From: a virus
Lineage: Duplodnaviria > Caudoviricetes
Reading direction: 5' to 3' (one strand)
Virus record (IMG/VR): IMGVR_UViG_3300032225_001492
Span: 1-26,991 of that record
DNA length: 26,991 nucleotides
A program made the position numbers and the translations under genes. Below the pieces are notes generated by a model, which saw nothing but the letters and a program-made list of their open reading frames with translations, was not told where the DNA came from and ran no database searches. Positions 10,482 to 21,607 of this stretch are shown here, in pieces; the first letter of the stretch is position 1, and each line of letters begins with the position of its first letter.

Positions 10482-11418
10482 TTGTGTGGTTTACATTAGC
10501 AGTGTGGCCAATGTAAAAAAACACAGCCGCAAAAGTCAATGTCTTGAAAGTTTTGCTACAGGGGTGGCCAATTCTGGAGGCCTGGTGCATGTTGAACGGG
10601 ATTATGTTTACACACCCAGTCGCTTGGCAGTGATGTTGGGTTGGGCAACTACCAACACTGGTGGCCGCAACATTACTTTACGCAAGGAAATCATAGCAGA
10701 ACAACGCAGACGTGGATTTCAGACCATGTGCATTGATGCTAGTTGCTGGAAATATATTGACGAAGGTAGTAGATATCTACGATATAGTTTGAATGGTCCG
10801 TTCTATGACCGCGCCGAATATGCCAATCATAGCAGTGATTGGAACAAGTGGAATGAAATCAAACAAGCACTACATATTGAATTGCAAGCACCACAATCAA
10901 ATCCTCAAGGGCATATTTTGATCTGCATGCAACGTGATGGGGGATTTTCTATGAAAGCATTAGATCCAATGGAATGGCTCAACGGAAAAATTCGACAAAT
11001 TCGACAACACACGCAACGCCAACTCCTGATACGCCCTCATCCAGGAGATTACAGACCAGATGATTTTCGCAAGTGGCATAAAAGACAACTCAACAATGAT
11101 ACTAGCATTATAGTAGCGGATCCTATAAACACCCAATTGACAGACAACTTGCATGGTGCTCATGCCGCAGTGTTCTTCAACAGTAGTGCAAGCGTGGCGG
11201 CTGTGTGCGCTGGTGTACCGGTGTTTGCGGATGATTCAAGTTGTGTGGCTTGGTCAGTGGCCAATCAAGATATTGCACAGATTGAGTCACCCAGAGTATT
11301 TGCACGAGAGCAATGGTTATATGATCTGGCCGCCGCACATTGGAGTGATCAAGATGCACAGGCCGGACGCATTTGGCAAAAATTCCAGCCTTACTTGACT
11401 TCTACCACAACATCATAG
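10474..11418 (+). CDS. Putative GT-B-type glycosyltransferase (KpsS/KpsC-like), paralog 2
   Basis: ILICMQ, LLIRPHP, FFNSSASVAAVCAGVPVF, REQWLYDLAAAHWS. Confidence 0.65.
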   Translation: MLDCVVYISSVANVKKHSRKSQCLESFATGVANSGGLVHVERDYVYTPSRLAVMLGWATTNTGGRNITLRKEIIAEQRRRGFQTMCIDASCWKYIDEGSRYLRYSLNGPFYDRAEYANHSSDWNKWNEIKQALHIELQAPQSNPQGHILICMQRDGGFSMKALDPMEWLNGKIRQIRQHTQRQLLIRPHPGDYRPDDFRKWHKRQLNNDTSIIVADPINTQLTDNLHGAHAAVFFNSSASVAAVCAGVPVFADDSSCVAWSVANQDIAQIESPRVFAREQWLYDLAAAHWSDQDAQAGRIWQKFQPYLTSTTTS

Positions 11419-11948
11419 TTGTGTCCCACAATGCCCGGCCACTTGTGGCTTTTGTCAAACACAGAAATATTTTCTGATACAATAACAATATCCATGTTGG
11501 CCAACAGTTGTTCACGCCACCAGTCCGGAGACTCTACAATTAGGTGAGCATTTCGCCCATCAGGCAAGTGTTTCTTGGCAGGATAACAAGCAATTCTAAA
11601 CCAACCAGCAATGATCATCTTGCTACTGATCATACGCAAAGTTTCCACAAAGTGTTCAGGTTCAATGTGTTCAAGTACATCTGCACTGACCACAGCATCA
11701 AATGATCTTTTGGGTACGCGATTGTGATCAACGTTTCCTGGATCATATCCTTCCACACGCATGTCGGGATAATCCTGTTGTATGCTGGCCATTAACGCTC
11801 CGTGTCCACACCCAAAGTCTAACACACTAGTGGGTTGATATTGTTCAAGGAATGGTCGCACACTTTTAAAAGTTTTGCTACCCCTAACAAAGCGTCCTTG
11901 CTCATGCATTTCTGCCAGTTGGGCCTGGTAGTTGGGATCTATAATCAT
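11391..11948 (-). CDS. Class I SAM-dependent methyltransferase
   Basis: VLDFGCGHG, GYDP, FDAVVSADVLEHI. Confidence 0.9.
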   Translation of the reverse strand: MIIDPNYQAQLAEMHEQGRFVRGSKTFKSVRPFLEQYQPTSVLDFGCGHGALMASIQQDYPDMRVEGYDPGNVDHNRVPKRSFDAVVSADVLEHIEPEHFVETLRMISSKMIIAGWFRIACYPAKKHLPDGRNAHLIVESPDWWREQLLANMDIVIVSENISVFDKSHKWPGIVGHNYDVVVEVK

Positions 11949-12619
11949 CTGTGATTTACCTCTATGTATTCATATTTGCCATCAAATGTGTCAGGCACAT
12001 CTTTCCAGGAAAGATTCAACTGATCATCTGCCCATTTATCATAATACGGACGATCTTTCCACCACCAGAACAAATCACTTGAATTCCAGTCTTGATAGTA
12101 ACTGCGAAAGAACTCGCGTGTTCTGGGTTGCACAAAGTGAGCAGGATCGTACATGCTTTTTTTACCTTTGGCTTCACGTTGAAAGTTTACACCAATAAAG
12201 CAAAACTGTTCAGCATAGGATTCCAGCCGCTTACGTACCCAAGTCATGTCTGCATCTGGAATACTGTTTAATACTTGAGTACAAATAACCCCATCAAACC
12301 GGGTACCCTCAGGAGGCAGTTGTTCAAATCCTGCCACACAAGGATCGTAGCAATATACTGTGACACCCAAGTACTCATCAAACGTTTTCCATTGGTCTTG
12401 GGGTAGTTCAACGCCGGCACCACCACCGTAAGGCAACTTTTCTTGATATTGTAGCCCTTTGCCGCATCCGTAGTCTAGTATGGTCTTGGCACCATAGCGA
12501 TCCACAAGATCCTTGATGCATTTTTGGTACTTGACCACATCGTAGCCAGCCCAACTTTTGTTTTGTTCCTGGAACTCGCGCCCCACACGAACTGATTCAT
12601 TGTAATATGCGCTTGTCAT
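11945..12619 (-). CDS. Class I SAM-dependent methyltransferase
   Basis: ILDYGCGKG, YDP, FDGVICTQVL. Confidence 0.88.
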   Translation of the reverse strand: MTSAYYNESVRVGREFQEQNKSWAGYDVVKYQKCIKDLVDRYGAKTILDYGCGKGLQYQEKLPYGGGAGVELPQDQWKTFDEYLGVTVYCYDPCVAGFEQLPPEGTRFDGVICTQVLNSIPDADMTWVRKRLESYAEQFCFIGVNFQREAKGKKSMYDPAHFVQPRTREFFRSYYQDWNSSDLFWWWKDRPYYDKWADDQLNLSWKDVPDTFDGKYEYIEVNHR

Positions 12620-13251
12620 AGCAATTTTATCTCCACAGTGGCACGTTTCTTACCGCCAGCATTTGATATTACATTCACAACTTCAAAGCCATCCACTCCG
12701 ATAAAGTTTGTTTCTGTACCTTTACATCTAATATCTAGAACAATTCTGGTATTCTCGTGCGAATGCTTCTTCATAAGATCAATGTAGGTTTTTACAGGAT
12801 AGTGATGCCCGCAACTGAGCCACGATGTAATAACATCAAATTTAACATCTGCAGGTATGTTGATGTTGTTGGCGTCAACAAGGTGATAGTTCTTTGTGCC
12901 CAGGTCCTGTAGTTTTGAATCTAAGAATTCAAATGTATGATAAAATTTTAACTCGCTAGAATCTGTGTTCCAATTACCGTAACTGGCAGATTCAGGTTTG
13001 GTAACATTGGTACTTGAATCGCCGTCGAGCAACCAAAGTTCTGTGCCGTACTTTTCATTGAACCAGCGGCTTTCCCAGGCAAAGCCACACCCAATGTCCA
13101 ATAATTTTCCTATTGGTTGGTTGAGATAAGCATCTGCTATTTCCCAACTAGATCGGTGCTTGGCTATATATCGTTCTTTTGTCCATTTACGAGCCCAGGT
13201 AACAGAATCCTCAGCACCCTTGTCAATGTTGTCAGTTGTATCTAGTTCCAT
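12616..13251 (-). CDS. Class I SAM-dependent methyltransferase
   Basis: LLDIGCGFA, FDVITSWLSCGHHYP. Likely start MELDTTD (13251) overlaps the end of the FkbM gene. Confidence 0.85.
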   Translation of the reverse strand: MELDTTDNIDKGAEDSVTWARKWTKERYIAKHRSSWEIADAYLNQPIGKLLDIGCGFAWESRWFNEKYGTELWLLDGDSSTNVTKPESASYGNWNTDSSELKFYHTFEFLDSKLQDLGTKNYHLVDANNINIPADVKFDVITSWLSCGHHYPVKTYIDLMKKHSHENTRIVLDIRCKGTETNFIGVDGFEVVNVISNAGGKKRATVEIKLL

Positions 13252-13889
13252 CCCATGATCCAATCGTCTTTGACTTGATCCAGTCGTGTCATGCCCCAAT
13301 CTTCTAACAAACCAACGGCAGCAAACTGTCCGTAGTGTTTGCTGTAGGCATCGTGAGGCTTTTGTTCAATAACAACAACAGGACGGCAGCGCCGAATGGT
13401 TTGTTCTGCTCCTTGCAACACACGATACTCAAACCCTTCACAGTCGATCTTGATGTAATCAACGTTTTGCAAGTTTAGACTGTCCAGTCTAATGATAGTG
13501 GTATCACCATCTTGACTGTCAGGATCAACATGGGTATGTCCTGTGTTGCCTTCTGTAATGATCATGCTGACCTGTCCTTCTTGATCGCCTAGTGCAACTG
13601 ATTGCACCATTAGATTTGATGCTGTAACATTGCGTTCTAAACATTCTCTAAACATGGCCACTGGTTCAAATGCAATCACTTGCTCAAAATGTTTGACAAG
13701 ATCACGCGACCATAAACCTACATTGGCACCGATGTCCAATGCTGTGCGTTTGTTCTTCACATGCCCAAGGCTACGCAAACGCACAGGCTGTTGATATTCT
13801 GTTGGCCCGCCTTTGCTCACACTCTTGGCCAGCATTTGAGGGAAGTGTGTTTCGATGTCGGGGAAATACCACCCATATTGTTCACGCAT
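13242..13889 (-). CDS. FkbM-family methyltransferase
   Basis: ALDIGANVG, AFEP, ALG, RLDS, IKIDCEGFE..VLQGA, PVVVIE. Confidence 0.92.
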   Translation of the reverse strand: MREQYGWYFPDIETHFPQMLAKSVSKGGPTEYQQPVRLRSLGHVKNKRTALDIGANVGLWSRDLVKHFEQVIAFEPVAMFRECLERNVTASNLMVQSVALGDQEGQVSMIITEGNTGHTHVDPDSQDGDTTIIRLDSLNLQNVDYIKIDCEGFEYRVLQGAEQTIRRCRPVVVIEQKPHDAYSKHYGQFAAVGLLEDWGMTRLDQVKDDWIMGWN

Positions 13890-14688
13890 TAGAAGTTTCC
13901 TTTAGTATTCGGGCGGCTGTGCCATCTGCCAATTCCGTGGTATGGAACTGTCCATACGCCAGGTGACAGGCCCACTTGTGTACCTGGTCCGAATCTGGAA
14001 ACCAAGGTGTTTCTATATCTTTTAAATCTCTATTGCTAACAGGTCGTGCGGCATTGGCAGCAGGTGCAGTAACAAATGTGGGTACACCGGCCAGCACAGC
14101 CTCTGTGGCCGCTGTTGAATTGAATGTGACCACAGCATGTACATCATTCAACCACTCTTCGGGCAGTTGTGTTTTTCGATCCCACCTTGAAGCAGGACGT
14201 TCGCGCATGCGTATGGGACGATCAGTGTGTTGTCTTATGGTATCGGTAGTGGTCTTGATCCACTGGTCCAGTGTAATACCGTAAAAGGCACAGGGCTTTT
14301 CATCCGGAGCAACTATTAGTATATCTCTACAATGATTTTGTCTTGGCCTAATTTTGACATTTAATTTTTGCAATCTATCTGCTGGCCTATCAACCACAGC
14401 GTCATGTTGCAAATCGTTAGGCACAATCCTGTGCCAAAACTTCCAACCATTGGGATTGGCGGCGCTGGGTCTGTTGCCCAAGTACCCTGAATCCATGTAA
14501 TAGAAATCACGTTTGTCTGCCCAGCATTGTTTGATAATCTTGTGTTTCATGATACCACGCAACACAAGTGGAGCATTGCTGTCTTCGTAACACCAGGTTT
14601 CCAGGCATGTGGGCACAGTTTGTGATCCTGCCGCAAACATCTCAATGTATTCGTCGGCGTTGTTTTTGTTTAGAAAAATCCAGGTCAT
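13882..14688 (-). CDS. Putative GT-B-type glycosyltransferase (KpsS/KpsC-like), paralog 3
   Basis: VLRGI, YMDSGYLG, ILIVAP, IRMRERP, VTFNSTAATEAVLAGVP, WACHLAYGQF; closest to 9489..10481. Confidence 0.65.
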   Translation of the reverse strand: MTWIFLNKNNADEYIEMFAAGSQTVPTCLETWCYEDSNAPLVLRGIMKHKIIKQCWADKRDFYYMDSGYLGNRPSAANPNGWKFWHRIVPNDLQHDAVVDRPADRLQKLNVKIRPRQNHCRDILIVAPDEKPCAFYGITLDQWIKTTTDTIRQHTDRPIRMRERPASRWDRKTQLPEEWLNDVHAVVTFNSTAATEAVLAGVPTFVTAPAANAARPVSNRDLKDIETPWFPDSDQVHKWACHLAYGQFHTTELADGTAARILKETSNA

Positions 14689-15485
14689 TGCCAGTACGCT
14701 TCTGTACGCGGCACTTTTAAATCCACACGTTTGCTGCGGCCCAAATCTTTTCTGGCACCTTTAAGGTGATCCAGGTATGCACCCCATTCACAATTGATTA
14801 AGGGATGGCCTTCGCCAGTGATCAAATGTCCTGACCAATCCAGTTCATTCAATGCACATTGTTTTCTCACAGCATCAAACACAAAACTATCATGCCATTC
14901 TTCTAGGGTGAATATGCCACCTTCAGCATCATCATAGTAACGCTGAAACTTTTGTAAAAATGCTCGAGTGTTTGGTGTGGCAAGATTCATGGCATACAAT
15001 CCGCACTCGGTGTACTTGTGTCTGCGACCCAAAAAGCACAAGTCCTGTGTTGGGGGGCATAATCGATCTAGATCTGCCAGTGTAATAGGGCTATGACACA
15101 CAGTATCCGCATCCATCCACAACAGCCAATCGGTGCTGACAGATCTAGCACAATGAAAGATACTGTAGACTTTGTGACTAAACCTCACAGCGTCCCATTT
15201 GAATCCTTTGCCAGCATCCTTGCGTCGTGCTCGTGCAGGATCCGCGCTAACATCGCCATTGGCACGTGGAACTCCTTGCCAAATTTCTTTGAATGTTGTG
15301 AGTGCATCAACAATGCCAATATCATGCACCACAAGGTTGGGCGCAGTTTCAGCAACAGCACAACTTTCAGCATAGACCACAAGGGTGACTTCTGCAGGCC
15401 ATGTTTGCAAAAAGGTCTGGATCATTCGACGGCCATACTTCTCGTAACCGTCAGCGTTAAAAGTGGTACATACAGTGTATTTCAT
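14685..15485 (-). CDS. GT-A fold glycosyltransferase
   Basis: RFSHKV, DxD motif LWMDAD, ECG, WHDSFVF, HLKG. Confidence 0.8.
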   Translation of the reverse strand: MKYTVCTTFNADGYEKYGRRMIQTFLQTWPAEVTLVVYAESCAVAETAPNLVVHDIGIVDALTTFKEIWQGVPRANGDVSADPARARRKDAGKGFKWDAVRFSHKVYSIFHCARSVSTDWLLWMDADTVCHSPITLADLDRLCPPTQDLCFLGRRHKYTECGLYAMNLATPNTRAFLQKFQRYYDDAEGGIFTLEEWHDSFVFDAVRKQCALNELDWSGHLITGEGHPLINCEWGAYLDHLKGARKDLGRSKRVDLKVPRTEAYWQ

Positions 15486-17551: not shown

Positions 17552-18276
17552 TGTCAAAAAAGAATCCAGGACGCATTGACTGTGCCTGCGTTATTCACGG
17601 CTCTGGCTATGACTGGCAGTATGTAGAAAAATTATACAATATGTTGAGTCGAAATCTCTCGGCAGAAGTTCGCCTGCATGTGTACACTGAGCATGATAGA
17701 TCAGTACCACCACACATGGTCAAACACATTTTGGAAGACTGGGGTATAAGCGGGCCCAAGCGATCCTGGTGGTACAAGATGCAGTTGTTTAACCCTGCTC
17801 ACTTTACCGGCAATCTCTTGTACTTTGATCTAGACGTTGTGATTGCCAATCAACTGAACTGGGTACGTGAACTCAGTACCGACTATCTTTGGACCATTAG
17901 AGATTTCAGATATCTACAACGCCGTGACACTGTGACAATGAACTCCAGCATGATGTGGTTCAATGTCGATCGCTTTAGTTGGATATGGGATCAATTCAGT
18001 CAACTTGATTTCAAAGCCACAATCAAAAGTTATCCCGGAGATCAAGATTACCTGGGTGCAGTACTAGATGTGAACCAAAGACGCTTTGCAGAAGACTTGT
18101 ATTTTGAAAGTTTTCGTTGGCAATGCTTGGACGGCGGATATGACTTTGCTCGAAGAAAACATCTCAAACCCGGCAGTGGGGTTCGAATAAAACCCGGTAC
18201 CAGTGTAGTGGTGTTCCATGGCAACCCCAAACCCGCACAAGTGCATGACCCTGTGATACAACAACTGTGGCAGTAA
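17551..18276 (+). CDS. GT-A fold glycosyltransferase
   Basis: YVEKLYNM, WWYKMQLF, DxD motif LYFDLDVV, NSSMM, GDQDYL, VVFHGNPKP. Confidence 0.85.
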   Translation: MSKKNPGRIDCACVIHGSGYDWQYVEKLYNMLSRNLSAEVRLHVYTEHDRSVPPHMVKHILEDWGISGPKRSWWYKMQLFNPAHFTGNLLYFDLDVVIANQLNWVRELSTDYLWTIRDFRYLQRRDTVTMNSSMMWFNVDRFSWIWDQFSQLDFKATIKSYPGDQDYLGAVLDVNQRRFAEDLYFESFRWQCLDGGYDFARRKHLKPGSGVRIKPGTSVVVFHGNPKPAQVHDPVIQQLWQ

Positions 18277-18278
18277 AA

Positions 18279-18326
18279 AGTAGTACTAGAGTAGTACTTG
18301 ACCAATAATTCCCTTTTTGCTACAAT
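18279..18326 (+). promoter_or_regulatory. Early sigma70 promoter 1 with tandem AGTAGTACT boxes
   Basis: AGTAGTACT at 18279-18287 and 18290-18298; TTGACC (18298-18303), 17 nt, TACAAT (18321-18326), extended TG. Confidence 0.85.
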
Positions 18327-18355
18327 AGTGGCATACAAAGCAAAAAGGAGTTGCC

Positions 18356-18586
18356 GTGGGATACCGTATTATCGCAAACAAGTTTGAAACAGACATGATG
18401 CGCCAGAAGTATGGCCCACGTGCAGGCCTTGAAGGACCATTCAAGTATGCATCAGGACGAGTGTTATACTACGATCCCAAAGAAGGTCGCTACTATGACC
18501 CTACTACAGACTTCTACCTCAGCCACGAGGAAATGGATGCTGAACACGGAATTCTTGTCAAGCGTTTAGTTGATTTCCAAAAGTAA
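18356..18586 (+). CDS. Hypothetical early protein
   Basis: GTG start with SD AAGGAG; 76 aa containing a YYDP repeat (YYDPKEGRYYDP). Confidence 0.8.
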   Translation: MGYRIIANKFETDMMRQKYGPRAGLEGPFKYASGRVLYYDPKEGRYYDPTTDFYLSHEEMDAEHGILVKRLVDFQK

Positions 18587-18629
18587 TACTTTTGCTGTAA
18601 TTGACAATAAATTGTCCTTTTGCTATAAT
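18578..18629 (+). promoter_or_regulatory. Early sigma70 promoter 2 with palindrome CAAAAGTA-A-TACTTTTG
   Basis: Palindrome 18578-18594; perfect TTGACA (18601-18606), 17 nt, TATAAT (18624-18629), extended TG. Confidence 0.92.
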
Positions 18630-18655
18630 ATACACATAAAGAAACAAAGGAATAT

Positions 18656-18877
18656 ATGAATCTAAAACTCAAAGCCCTATTACAGACAGCAGGAATTCTT
18701 GTTGTAACCACCACCATTGCAGTTGGTATACAACTTTTGTTTACAACTTTAACTGCAAAAGAATTGACCAACATCCTTGCAGTAGGAAGTATTACATTCT
18801 TGATATATTGCATGTATCAAGTAGTACTGAGTCGCTTGGAATACGAGCAAAAAGTTGAAGAAATTGCACAAAAGTAA
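18656..18877 (+). CDS. Small membrane protein (two predicted TM helices)
   Basis: SD AAGGA; two hydrophobic stretches (AGILVVTTTIAVGIQLLF; ILAVGSITFLIYCMY). Confidence 0.8.
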   Translation: MNLKLKALLQTAGILVVTTTIAVGIQLLFTTLTAKELTNILAVGSITFLIYCMYQVVLSRLEYEQKVEEIAQK

Positions 18878-18920
18878 TACTTTTTGTGTACTTGACCAAT
18901 AAATCAACATTTGCTATAAT
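18870..18920 (+). promoter_or_regulatory. Early sigma70 promoter 3 with palindrome AAAAGTA-A-TACTTTT
   Basis: Palindrome 18870-18884; TTGACC (18892-18897), 17 nt, TATAAT (18915-18920), extended TG. Confidence 0.9.
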
Positions 18921-18966
18921 ATACACATAGACAGTTAGATAAACCCGCACACAAAAGGAGCCAACC

Positions 18967-19989
18967 ATGAGTGCAATTTGCGTAAAAAACGGTACATACC
19001 GTAACCGACCCGTCCGCAACCAAGAATTCGTTCTTGTTAGCGGTTTTCAAACTGGTGCAAAAGGTAACTATGTTACAGTCAAAAATAACGGCACCTTCCC
19101 AAACTGCCCTGATACAATCCGTATTAGTGTAGACAACATTTCTGACATAGAGTATACTAACGGTATGACAAAAGACAATACAGTACATTTTGAAAAATCA
19201 GTTCTTGTGGCAGAATCTGACGAGGATGCAATGAACCGTATCCGCGAGCGTTTTGACATACTAACAGAGATGACCAAGGCCACTGTGAGCGGTGACATCC
19301 GTGCTATGATTGTGAGTGGCCCCCCTGGTGTTGGTAAATCCTTTGGCGTTGAGACTGAGATTGAAAAGGCTTGTTTGTTTGACAAACTGGCAGGCAAGCG
19401 TCTCCGTGCTGAGGTTGTGAAAGGTAGTGCAACACCTATCGGTTTGTTCCAGACACTTTACAAATACTCCGATGAGAATTGTGTCATTGTGTTTGACGAC
19501 TGTGACTCAATCTTGCTAGATGATGTGGCTCTTAACTTGCTGAAAGGTGCTCTTGACTCTGGCAAGAAACGTACCATTTCATGGTTGAGTGAATCCAGTG
19601 CCTTGCGCCGTGAAGGTATCCCGGATCGTTTTGAGTTCAAAGGCTCAGTAATCTTTATTACCAACTTAAAGTTTGATCAAATGAAATCGCAAAAATTGCG
19701 TGATCACTTGGATGCATTGCAATCGCGCTGTCACTATCTGGACTTGACCCTGGACTCACAGCGTGACAAATTGTTGCGTATCAAACAGATTGCCAAAGAT
19801 GGCGTGTTGTTCCAGGACTACGAGTTTGATGAGGCTGTGCAAGACGACATTATTGACTTCATGCTCACTAACAAGGATCGTTTGCGTGAATTGAGCCTGC
19901 GTATGGCTCTTAAAATTGCAGACTTGCGCAAGATGAGTGTGCTGAACTGGAAGCGCCTGGCAGAAACAACTTGCATGAAGAGTGCCTGA
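18967..19989 (+). CDS. AAA+ family ATPase with small N-terminal beta domain
   Basis: Walker A GPPGVGKS, Walker B IVFDDCD, sensor-1 FITN, arginine finger ALQSR; SD AAGGAG. Confidence 0.9.
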   Translation: MSAICVKNGTYRNRPVRNQEFVLVSGFQTGAKGNYVTVKNNGTFPNCPDTIRISVDNISDIEYTNGMTKDNTVHFEKSVLVAESDEDAMNRIRERFDILTEMTKATVSGDIRAMIVSGPPGVGKSFGVETEIEKACLFDKLAGKRLRAEVVKGSATPIGLFQTLYKYSDENCVIVFDDCDSILLDDVALNLLKGALDSGKKRTISWLSESSALRREGIPDRFEFKGSVIFITNLKFDQMKSQKLRDHLDALQSRCHYLDLTLDSQRDKLLRIKQIAKDGVLFQDYEFDEAVQDDIIDFMLTNKDRLRELSLRMALKIADLRKMSVLNWKRLAETTCMKSA

Positions 19990-19990
19990 T

Positions 19991-20083
19991 ATGGCTTGGA
20001 TAGGTGTCTTAATGTTGTTAATGTTGGGACACCTTGGCTGGTCATTGTTGTTGGCAATTTTAATTTTGTTCTTTGGAGATTGA
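19991..20083 (+). CDS. 30-aa hydrophobic membrane peptide (MAWIGVLMLLMLGHLGWSLLLAILILFFGD)
   Basis: ATG lies 1 nt after the ATPase stop and TGA 1 nt before the next ATG, so it exactly fills the gap; not in the ORF track. Confidence 0.65.
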   Translation: MAWIGVLMLLMLGHLGWSLLLAILILFFGD

Positions 20084-20084
20084 C

Positions 20085-20258
20085 ATGGCAGGCAAAGCAA
20101 AATCAGTTTATCTAACTGTAACACCCAAGGGCCAAATCCAAAGTGTTTTTCGCAAGACATTCTTTGATGCCAAAGGCTACAATGACTATGTACGTAGCGA
20201 AGAGTTCCGAGCCAAATGGCCCGCGGATCAATACGATATTATAAAGGAAACCTACTGA
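20085..20258 (+). CDS. Hypothetical 57-aa protein
   Basis: ATG 20085 with SD GGAG; MAGKAKSVYLTVTPKG... Confidence 0.75.
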   Translation: MAGKAKSVYLTVTPKGQIQSVFRKTFFDAKGYNDYVRSEEFRAKWPADQYDIIKETY

Positions 20259-20359
20259 TGTACGAAATTTATAATGATGACCTTTTGTTGTTCACAACCA
20301 ACGATACAGAAGAAGCCGACTATTACCGGATTGAAGGATATATTGTACGAAAAGTTTAA
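20258..20359 (+). CDS. Hypothetical 33-aa protein (MYEIYNDDLLLFTTNDTEEADYYRIEGYIVRKV)
   Basis: TGATG overlap with the previous gene and SD AAGGA; not in the ORF track. Confidence 0.6.
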   Translation: MYEIYNDDLLLFTTNDTEEADYYRIEGYIVRKV

Positions 20360-20372
20360 CCTTTCAAGATTT

Positions 20373-20400
20373 CCCGGGCATTGGTTGGCTCCGGCCCGGG
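20373..20400 (+). ncRNA. Candidate anti-RBS hairpin / 3'UTR-derived sRNA
   Basis: CCCGGGC, loop ATTGGTTGGCTCCG, GCCCGGG. The loop contains TGGTTGGCTCC, the reverse complement of GGAGCCAACCA (18957-18967). Confidence 0.6.
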
Positions 20401-20406
20401 TTTGAC

Positions 20407-20441
20407 AACAGACACCCCTAAAAAGGTGTCTGTTTTTTTTT
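20407..20441 (+). terminator. Rho-independent terminator
   Basis: AACAGACACC-cctaaaaa-GGTGTCTGTT running into a T tract (T run 20433-20441). Confidence 0.9.
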
Positions 20442-20479
20442 GACTTTTAGAAATATCTAGCGTATAATAAACGTAAATA
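20440..20479 (+). promoter_or_regulatory. Tandem sigma70 promoter and TAAATA box
   Basis: TTGACT (20440-20445), 17 nt, TATAAT (20463-20468); TAAATA at 20474-20479, 6 nt before ATG 20486. Confidence 0.75.
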
Positions 20480-20485
20480 CTTGCT

Positions 20486-21607
20486 ATGACTTTTTGCCAT
20501 TCTCCCTGGACCAATATTGATATCAGTCCCCAAGGTACTATTACACCTTGTTGCAAATTCCAATTGGCCGGTCACGATCAAAAATTCAACATTCAAAAAC
20601 ACACGCTGAATGAATATGTTGAGAGTGCCTTTTTGTCCAGGATTAAACAGGATTTTGCACAAGGAAACTGGCCACTGGGTTGCGAACGTTGCCAAATAGA
20701 AGAGCAGAACAATATTGAGAGCAAACGTCAACTGGACGGTCAACGTTGGTTGGAGCACTACAATCGATACCAATTAGACAGCAATCAATTTATCACAGCC
20801 AGCATAGCATTTGGAAACACCTGTAATCTCAAATGTATTACTTGTAATCCCTACAGTAGTAGTCGGTGGCAACAAGAGTACAGAGAGATATACAACATTG
20901 ACATTGATAATGTGCGTTTTTATAGAAATGATTTTGTTAAAACGTTCACAGAGCAAGCACCAAACATTGTGCATTTGGATATTCCTGGCGGCGAACCATT
21001 CTTGAGTGGAGTGCCTGAACAACAGCAATTGTTGAAATATTATGTGGAGTCCGGTCAGGCAAAAAACATCACCTTACACTATACCACCAACGCAACACTA
21101 TTTCCTGACAGGACTTGGTGGGAATTATGGCAACACTTTAAAGAAATTGATCTACAAATCAGTATAGACGGTATTGGTGCCAGATATGAGTATATTCGAT
21201 ACCCCGGCAACTGGGATAGTTTGGTTTCAAACGTTGCTCAATATCAGGATAAACAAGCAGACAATTTGAGATTGAGCGTGAGCCATACAGTCAGTGCTTA
21301 TAACATCTATTATCTTGACGAGTTTGTAAGTTGGTGTTATAATCAAGGCTTGCCAAGGCCCTGGTTAGGGCGTGTGCATAATCCTGCACACATGAGACCC
21401 ACAGTTTGGACCGGGGATGCTAAACAAAAGATTGTTGATCATTTGAGTCAAAGTTCACACGAAGATGTAAGAACTTGGGCCAAGTTAATAGAACAAAATG
21501 ATGACAGCATGATGTTTGAGCAATTTCAAAAACGTTTATATCAACATGATCAATATAGAAACACAACCTTTGCCAACACATTTCCCGAACTGGCACAATA
21601 CATATGA
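20486..21607 (+). CDS. Radical SAM protein with N-terminal twitch/SPASM-like Cys cluster
   Basis: CHSPW..PCC..CERC, CNLKCITC, GGEPF, TTNAT, SIDG; paralog of 272..1402. Confidence 0.9.
   Translation: MTFCHSPWTNIDISPQGTITPCCKFQLAGHDQKFNIQKHTLNEYVESAFLSRIKQDFAQGNWPLGCERCQIEEQNNIESKRQLDGQRWLEHYNRYQLDSNQFITASIAFGNTCNLKCITCNPYSSSRWQQEYREIYNIDIDNVRFYRNDFVKTFTEQAPNIVHLDIPGGEPFLSGVPEQQQLLKYYVESGQAKNITLHYTTNATLFPDRTWWELWQHFKEIDLQISIDGIGARYEYIRYPGNWDSLVSNVAQYQDKQADNLRLSVSHTVSAYNIYYLDEFVSWCYNQGLPRPWLGRVHNPAHMRPTVWTGDAKQKIVDHLSQSSHEDVRTWAKLIEQNDDSMMFEQFQKRLYQHDQYRNTTFANTFPELAQYI

Follow-up and report, generated by a model that had tools for sequence, protein, structure and literature searches.

Autoregulation from the 3' end of an operon has been shown for few bacterial RNAs, namely CarZ, OppZ and icaR. 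CarZ and OppZ are sRNAs of Vibrio cholerae that derive from 3' UTRs and regulate their own operons, with the first gene as the target of CarZ and the second as that of OppZ, and the RNase E motif RN^WUU marks the 5' end of both (Hoyos et al. 2020, PMC7398697). A review names them as the first examples of such autoregulation, and in the portion of its text covered here the word "phage" occurs just in the reference list (PMC9438474). In Staphylococcus aureus, a motif in the 3' UTR of icaR pairs with the Shine-Dalgarno (SD) sequence of its own mRNA and blocks initiation (Ruiz de los Mozos et al. 2013, PMC3868564). The cuckoo RNAs of Alphaproteobacteria have two to four hairpins, each with CCUCCUCCC (PMC4615179).

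Here we describe an operon of a large group of uncultured giant phages whose 3' end, called the tail below, carries a seed complementary to the ribosome-binding site (RBS) of the operon's first gene, which encodes an AAA+ ATPase. Our literature search, with most subscription papers outside its scope, found no phage example of such an element, and the covered part of PMC5737381 contains no such motif. Among the candidate viral RNAs of PMC10690425, four motif strings are absent from six supplementary files; files 1, 2 and 4 lay outside the search and could hold the tail RNA.

Results

The window, i.e., the whole stretch of DNA that was analysed (26,991 nt), is the entire 27-kb virus record IMGVR_UViG_3300032225_001492. 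It contains T4-like genes for terminase, ssb, UvsX, UvsY and helicase, and since related IMG/VR records reach 330-364 kb, the window is a piece of a giant T4-like phage, which we take to be a freshwater phage. Six minus-strand genes are found at 11391-15485 (-), four of them with methyltransferase matches, and glycosyltransferase and radical SAM genes adjoin them.

The earlier note had read the locus as one operon with a promoter, three micro-ORFs, a seed hairpin and a terminator, and all of these are present where it had placed them (Table 1). The RBSs of the two upstream cassettes do not match the seed. As no terminator is called between their promoters and the ATPase operon, longer transcripts would hold both target and tail. 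The 30-aa micro-ORF gave no match in Pfam or PHROG. The U run of the terminator also forms the start of the -35 box, TTGACT, of the next promoter (overlap region 20433-20468; promoter 20440-20468), and this overlap recurs in relatives.

Table 1. Features of the ATPase operon and its immediate surroundings in the window.
Feature	Position	Strand	Remarks
Two upstream early-promoter cassettes	18298-18877	+	Promoters 18298-18326 and 18601-18629; ORFs 18356-18586 and 18656-18877
Sigma-70-type early promoter	18892-18920	+	TTGACC-17-TATAAT with TG; 11/12
Target in the ATPase RBS	18957-18967	+	GGAGCCAACCA; SD GGAG, gene-specific spacer CCAACC and A of the ATG (18967)
AAA+ ATPase gene, T4 NrdC.10 homologue	18967-19989	+	340 aa; phrog_1250
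Putative promoter-like site within the ATPase gene	19130-19158	+	TAGACA-17-TATACT; TTGACA in many relatives
Hydrophobic micro-ORF	19991-20083	+	30 aa; variable cargo
Micro-ORF	20085-20258	+	57 aa; variable cargo
Micro-ORF	20258-20359	+	33 aa; variable cargo
AG^AUU, fits RNase E consensus RN^WUU	20367-20371	+	Predicted 5' end of released RNA at 20369
Seed hairpin	20373-20400	+	CCCGGGC-ATTGGTTGGCTCCG-GCCCGGG, 7-bp stem; compensatory and G-U changes in the stem among relatives
Anti-RBS seed	20382-20392	+	UGGUUGGCUCC; exact reverse complement of 18957-18967
Intrinsic terminator	20407-20441	+	Stem 20407-20434, 9-U tail

The operon's first gene encodes a T4 NrdC.10-like AAA+ ATPase by both homology and fold. 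It matches phrog_1250 with E 1.7e-82 and T4 nrdC.10 with E 6e-40 (34.6% identity, residues 81-332), and its predicted structure consists of a small beta N-domain (residues 1-65) followed by a generic AAA+ module, for which the best AAA+ fold match has Z 13.0 (rmsd 3.4, 209 aligned). T4 NrdC.10 is described merely as a conserved AAA ATPase in the covered part of PMC1524935. The N-domain alone shows a weak SH3/KOW-like resemblance only (Z scores up to 4.5, Foldseek E values of 0.16 or above); the idea that it is an Sm/Hfq-like RNA chaperone was dropped, as an LSm domain came at rank 46 and Pfam gave no match. In some loci an SD-like GAGGA lies 5' of the in-frame Met89 and could yield a form without the N-domain. 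Such a short isoform was rejected as a general feature, since the SD is not conserved and the Met is missing in 12 of the 125 loci. The RaK2 homologue of the ATPase is naturally 256 aa.

The earlier note had claimed that the loop pairs perfectly with the SD, the spacer and the A of the ATPase AUG, and the sequence bears this out over 11 nt. It had also held that the match is not a generic anti-SD, which agrees with our results in that the gene-specific spacer (CCAACC) is included and each strand of the window contains GGAGCCAAC exactly once. Among the 449 blocks of 60 nt in the window, only the tail block has at least 9 nt antisense to the ATPase start region. The seed hairpin and terminator fold well (z -3.4), and the target sits in an A-rich leader that is predicted to be weakly folded. 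The proposed display of the seed in a loop stands only in part: the hairpin is there, but its 14-nt loop is predicted to be partly closed by three extra pairs that leave a 6-nt apical loop, and the seed is not loop-borne in every lineage.

The predicted opening costs are about 3.4 kcal/mol for the seed and 2.3 kcal/mol for the RBS, and the duplex, including a bulged extension across the AUG, is predicted at -22.9 kcal/mol. The predicted net value for tail-RBS pairing is about -17 kcal/mol, vs. about -8 kcal/mol for the 16S tail. The bulged-U pairing over the whole AUG, suggested earlier, is thus predicted for the window, but it draws in a base of the stem and is not conserved in relatives, whose in-register pairing mostly ends at or before the A of the AUG. 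Coverage of the AUG was therefore discarded as a design feature. The long-range duplex is 7-12 bp long. Many loci have a predicted leader stem (GCAC/GUGC) by which the RBS would be displayed, yet it is weak and not universal, and was set aside as well.

Compensatory covariation between tail and RBS spacer, the check proposed in the earlier note, was strongly evident in the close clade, on the ATPase tree, in permutations and in a held-out set. The close clade comprises 80 loci with 78-100% protein identity, two of which lack the gene start. Wherever the RBS is GGAGCCAAC and the start is visible, the seed is present (63/63), 26-1557 nt past the stop codon. In loci with another RBS, the tail fits that RBS in 14 of 15 cases, and the contig of the fifteenth ends 133 nt past the stop. 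The RBS/tail pairs in this clade are GGAGCCAAC/GTTGGCTCC, GGGCTAGTAA/TTACTAGCCC, GGAGCTA/TAGCTCC and GGAGCGAAA/TTTCGCTCC, and a second scan gave the further pairs GGAGTTGGC/GCCAACTCC and GGAGCTAAC/GTTAGCTCC. Natural pairs include those of GGAGCCAAC, GGGCTAGTAA, GGAGTTGGC and GGAGCTAA.

In the pooled set the start is intact in 186 of 208 loci, which gave 125 distinct genes, and a terminator was called for 117 of these. Within 48 nt 5' of the first terminator, 113 of the 117 have 7-11 nt antisense to their own RBS; a hairpin that is absent or not complementary in homologous loci, which the earlier note had named as speaking against its reading, is thus not what these close relatives show. The eight genes without a terminator call comprise three with the element and a variant U tail, one that is cut inside the element, and four that end within 130 nt of the stop. 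The nine RBS classes require 10 changes on the ATPase tree, which is an upper count of independent events since recombination can move RBS and tail jointly. The GGGCTAGT and GGAGCTAG classes each form a well-supported clade that is embedded among GGAGCCAAC loci. The match holds whatever cargo sits between ATPase and tail, and the distance varies 60-fold without loss. An imperfect match is kept in two lineages, i.e., GGAGCCAC (two loci) and L174. This covariation of the tail with the RBS makes it close to certain that an RNA-RNA pairing between them is under selection.

Distant clades have RBS/tail pairs of their own, i.e., GGAGGAGCAA/TTGCTCCTCC, GGAGAGAG/CTCTCTCC, GGAGTAACTAT/ATAGTT(G/A)CTCC, GAGGGC/GCCCTC and TCCACGCAAA/TTTGCGTGGA, the last of which lies 5' of the SD. 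Terminator calling overlooked some real cases, and those of L422 and L360 were identified by eye. Of 375 loci, 312 passed the filters and were reduced to 59 representatives under 80% identity. The match to the own tail averaged 7.08 nt in these representatives vs. 5.53 nt when tails were swapped, with 0/5000 permutations as good, and at least 7 nt were matched in 33/59 vs. 16% of swapped pairs. In the held-out set from genome_contigs (31/36 usable), 11/19 loci at 47% identity or more reached at least 7 nt (0/5000 permutations), and 0/12 loci under 47% identity did so. As judged from sequence, the match reaches relatives down to about 48% identity.

The display of the seed varies by lineage between a hairpin loop, a single strand 5' of the hairpin and the terminator loop, and in some distant lineages the seed begins at the stop codon. 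Several distant loci have no tail (e.g., L424, L457, L413, L405 and L363), which together with the imperfect matches in two lineages shows the element to be dispensable. T4 and eight other cultured phages have no tail match, and one of 10 cultured phages reaches 7 nt.

Some individual arrangements were also observed. Among cultured phages, only Pseudomonas phage PA5oct shows a trace of the element, as a hairpin past the nrdC.10-like stop (L150:4160-4175) copies 8 nt of the RBS spacer in its 5' arm and complements them in its 3' arm, so that the match is buried in the stem. Two loci (L432, L464) have a bipartite tail past the stop (AACTCC-A-GTGTCAG) that matches a leader motif upstream as well as the SD; its second part lies in a loop, like a toehold switch. 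In L326-L351, loops of 17-25 nt with tandem CUCC/CUCUCC lie 20-60 nt past the ATPase stop; they resemble cuckoo RNAs and could bind host SDs broadly. In L369, L385, L393 and L578, the seed GATTCGCTCCC is found in two to three hairpin loops, one of which is the terminator loop.

Counted over 32 distinct seed stems, 204 positions form Watson-Crick pairs, 14 are G-U, one is A-C and five are other, and this 14:1 excess of G-U over A-C favours folding of the + strand RNA. The long-range duplex also tolerates G-U, as an RBS C-to-U change lies opposite G, and GGAGTAAC lies opposite GTTGCTCC. In each of four near-complete genomes, as in the window, a covariance model found a single strong copy (80-96 bits; next 24); the model's alignment included one mis-set row (L046), and the five strong hits are independent of that row. 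Rfam searches gave only two sub-threshold chance hits in the window at 18200-20600, and nothing but a tRNA across 12 related loci.

In nine genomes, the tail matches its own RBS by 7-11 nt in all eight NrdC.10 units found. As a control, 147 units were found in early operons, of which 58 had a called terminator, and 43 of the latter were independent non-ATPase units. These 43 units had a mean match of 5.0 nt vs. 4.83 nt when swapped (213/2000), and a general tail-head pairing in early operons was rejected. The outlier among early units is a second, MoxR-like AAA ATPase (L253:6132-7217 (-), G001; loci L482-L561). In 60 distinct leader-tail sets out of 80 loci, the terminator hairpin carries an 8-9 nt complement for 29/30 starts that read AGCCC-ATG, with GGGCTGTG and CATGGGCT as the two matched forms, while 1/30 of the loci with other starts reaches 8 nt.

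Discussion

The results suggest that the tail pairs with the ATPase RBS and likely lowers ATPase translation. Pairing over the SD should block 30S loading, and we find it quite probable that the pairing represses the ATPase by one route or another. Release of the tail as an sRNA is our leading candidate for the main route, with about an even chance of being correct. The last ~73 nt of the early operon (seed hairpin, U-rich linker and terminator), which we take to fit the Hfq module, would likely be cut off by host RNase E. The freed ~73-nt RNA would then likely pair in trans with the ATPase RBS on transcripts of the same operon, probably helped by a host chaperone such as Hfq, and by covering the SD it would block ribosome loading. 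As the tail exists only once the operon has been transcribed, this would impose negative feedback, and we infer that ATPase output is under such a delayed cap. The 10 phage records searched, four of them at least 90% complete, held no phage-encoded Hfq. Host identification through genome_contigs was abandoned, as the 36 matches lie in unrelated bins and are likely misbinned phage contigs.

Release of the tail is consistent with RN^WUU occurring within 12 nt of the stem in 46/71 homologous flanks vs. 16/71 control upstream windows and 23% in coding sequence, keeping in mind that U-rich flanks meet this motif easily and could be plain linkers. In four distinct loci of two seed classes, a terminator-like hairpin with a U run and a promoter-like cassette lie directly past the ATPase stop, and the tail about 1 kb further on still matches the ATPase RBS. 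The inserted terminator is weaker (-11.3 vs. -14.5 kcal/mol) and may leak; as it is also near-identical in all four loci, which indicates recent spread, the kept match may be inertia. The cassette promoters were read by eye, with the strict pattern present only in L008, and automatic scanning of the stop-to-seed interval for promoters gave 0/116. The terminator-promoter cassette brings a new gene and lies 9-110 nt past the ATPase stop (L008, L005/L111, L023/L024, L030/L031).

The putative internal promoter within the ATPase gene would supply tail RNA without target. Its loose pattern is found in 72/125 loci, with TTGACA and TATACT in 45. Codon use at this site is biased, as Thr64 is ACT in 91/94 and Val55 is GTT or GTA in 109/121; Thr64 shares its degree of fixation with 17 other columns.

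Alternatively, the uncut mRNA might pair its 3' loop with its own RBS in cis, similar to icaR or hok, in which case it would be translated only while being made and subsequently be silenced or cut by a nuclease; in icaR-type pairing, the duplex on the uncut mRNA is an RNase III substrate. All covariation fits such a fold-back equally well, the seed is normally on the transcript of its target (113/117), and loop display requires no free 5' end; a closed-loop seed would be equally suited to kissing on the full-length RNA, and the seeds that begin at the stop codon in some distant lineages also agree with it. We nevertheless regard the fold-back as a possible but doubtful main route, as target and tail are separated by a terminator-like hairpin in the four loci above, this route would leave the conserved RNase E-type motif without a role, and intramolecular pairing was excluded by experiment for OppZ (PMC7398697). 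Folding of the whole transcript gave a pair probability of 0.01, by a method that cannot model kissing loops.

It is also conceivable that the ATPase is one target among several and that the tail is a wider shut-off RNA for many GGAGCC-type early RBSs or for host SDs. GGAGCC is common; in G004, 4/26 other promoter-proximal genes match the tail by at least 8 nt and are possible side targets, the gene just upstream matches the tail in both G004 and G002, and tandem CUCC repeats or two to three seed copies occur in some distant lineages. This broader role seems improbable, however, as other early RBSs do not track the seed class: matches of at least 8 nt were found for 0/24 in G003, 0/12 in G006, 0/7 in G007, 0/4 in G009 and 1/29 in G001. 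The 9/25 matches in G002 are mostly U-run matches to AAAAAGGA, and no other tested start in the window exceeds a 6-nt match to the loop.

Covariation shows pairing and not its sign, and the pairing might therefore act without repression, by closing the mRNA for protection, ribosome recycling or storage until a protein opens it. The ATPase itself could be this protein, given the SH3/KOW-like fold matches of its N-domain, but those scores are weak and the SD is covered in most lineages, and we consider a non-repressing closure hardly probable. A DNA-level inverted repeat (the end of a mobile cassette or a protein-binding site) or chance is very improbable, for although an 11-bp inverted repeat flanks a cassette with varying cargo, it is confined to the 11-mer and leaves the promoter outside, the stem covaries with a G-U bias, G-U is tolerated in the long-range duplex, the seed shifts among loop, single strand and terminator loop, and chance is countered by two permutation tests with 0/5000 each.

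Returning to the released tail sRNA, a broader picture can be put forward tentatively. Giant T4-like phages might have a family-wide, RNA-only feedback on early AAA+ ATPases, each with a private RBS barcode and a keyed tail, which would have had at least two separate origins, in the NrdC.10-like and the MoxR-like ATPase, with largely orthogonal re-cut pairs and an internal promoter that adds target-free tail RNA. If true, no earlier autoregulatory sRNA circuit would be known from a lytic phage, and it would also offer a natural library of orthogonal parts for self-limiting expression. The element also suggests that for these phages it matters how much of NrdC.10, a widespread ATPase of the T4 family, is made or when, and that lytic phages use their own RNA to shape early expression post-transcriptionally. 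With dozens of compensatory pairs, distances of 0 to 2 kb, three seed displays and terminator-separated loci, the question of cis or trans action is directly testable in reporters.

The earlier note had cited OppZ and CarZ as precedents, and CarZ, with its first-gene target, is the closer of the two, whereas OppZ targets the second gene. As in both Vibrio sRNAs, the tail is an operon 3' end with an intrinsic terminator and a conserved seed to the initiation region of its own operon. As in CarZ, this terminator-ended RNA is complementary to the 5' UTR of the operon, one promoter drives both, and RN^WUU is present. Unlike CarZ and OppZ, the element is predicted from sequence in a giant lytic phage, its seed is mostly loop-displayed, and seed and RBS have been replaced by new matched pairs many times. 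Like icaR, the tail has a motif that is the complement of the SD on its own mRNA. However, the icaR mRNA is monocistronic and its motif (UCCCCUG) is a generic anti-SD, with cis or trans action left open in the covered part of PMC3868564, while the phage seed includes a gene-specific spacer, covaries with its target and is separated from it by 1-3 kb and variable cargo. Cuckoo RNAs, as described in the covered part of PMC4615179, likewise have stems that vary and CU-rich anti-SD motifs in their hairpin loops, and some distant lineages have tandem CUCC loops; the window element was rejected as a cuckoo RNA, as it has one seed loop tuned to its own RBS and no Rfam match. T4 NrdC.10 belongs to the same protein family as the regulated ATPase, and T4 is without the tail match. 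Collectively, the comparison indicates that the predicted element works like a known bacterial kind, and that it is new in its host type, its spread and its repeated re-keying.
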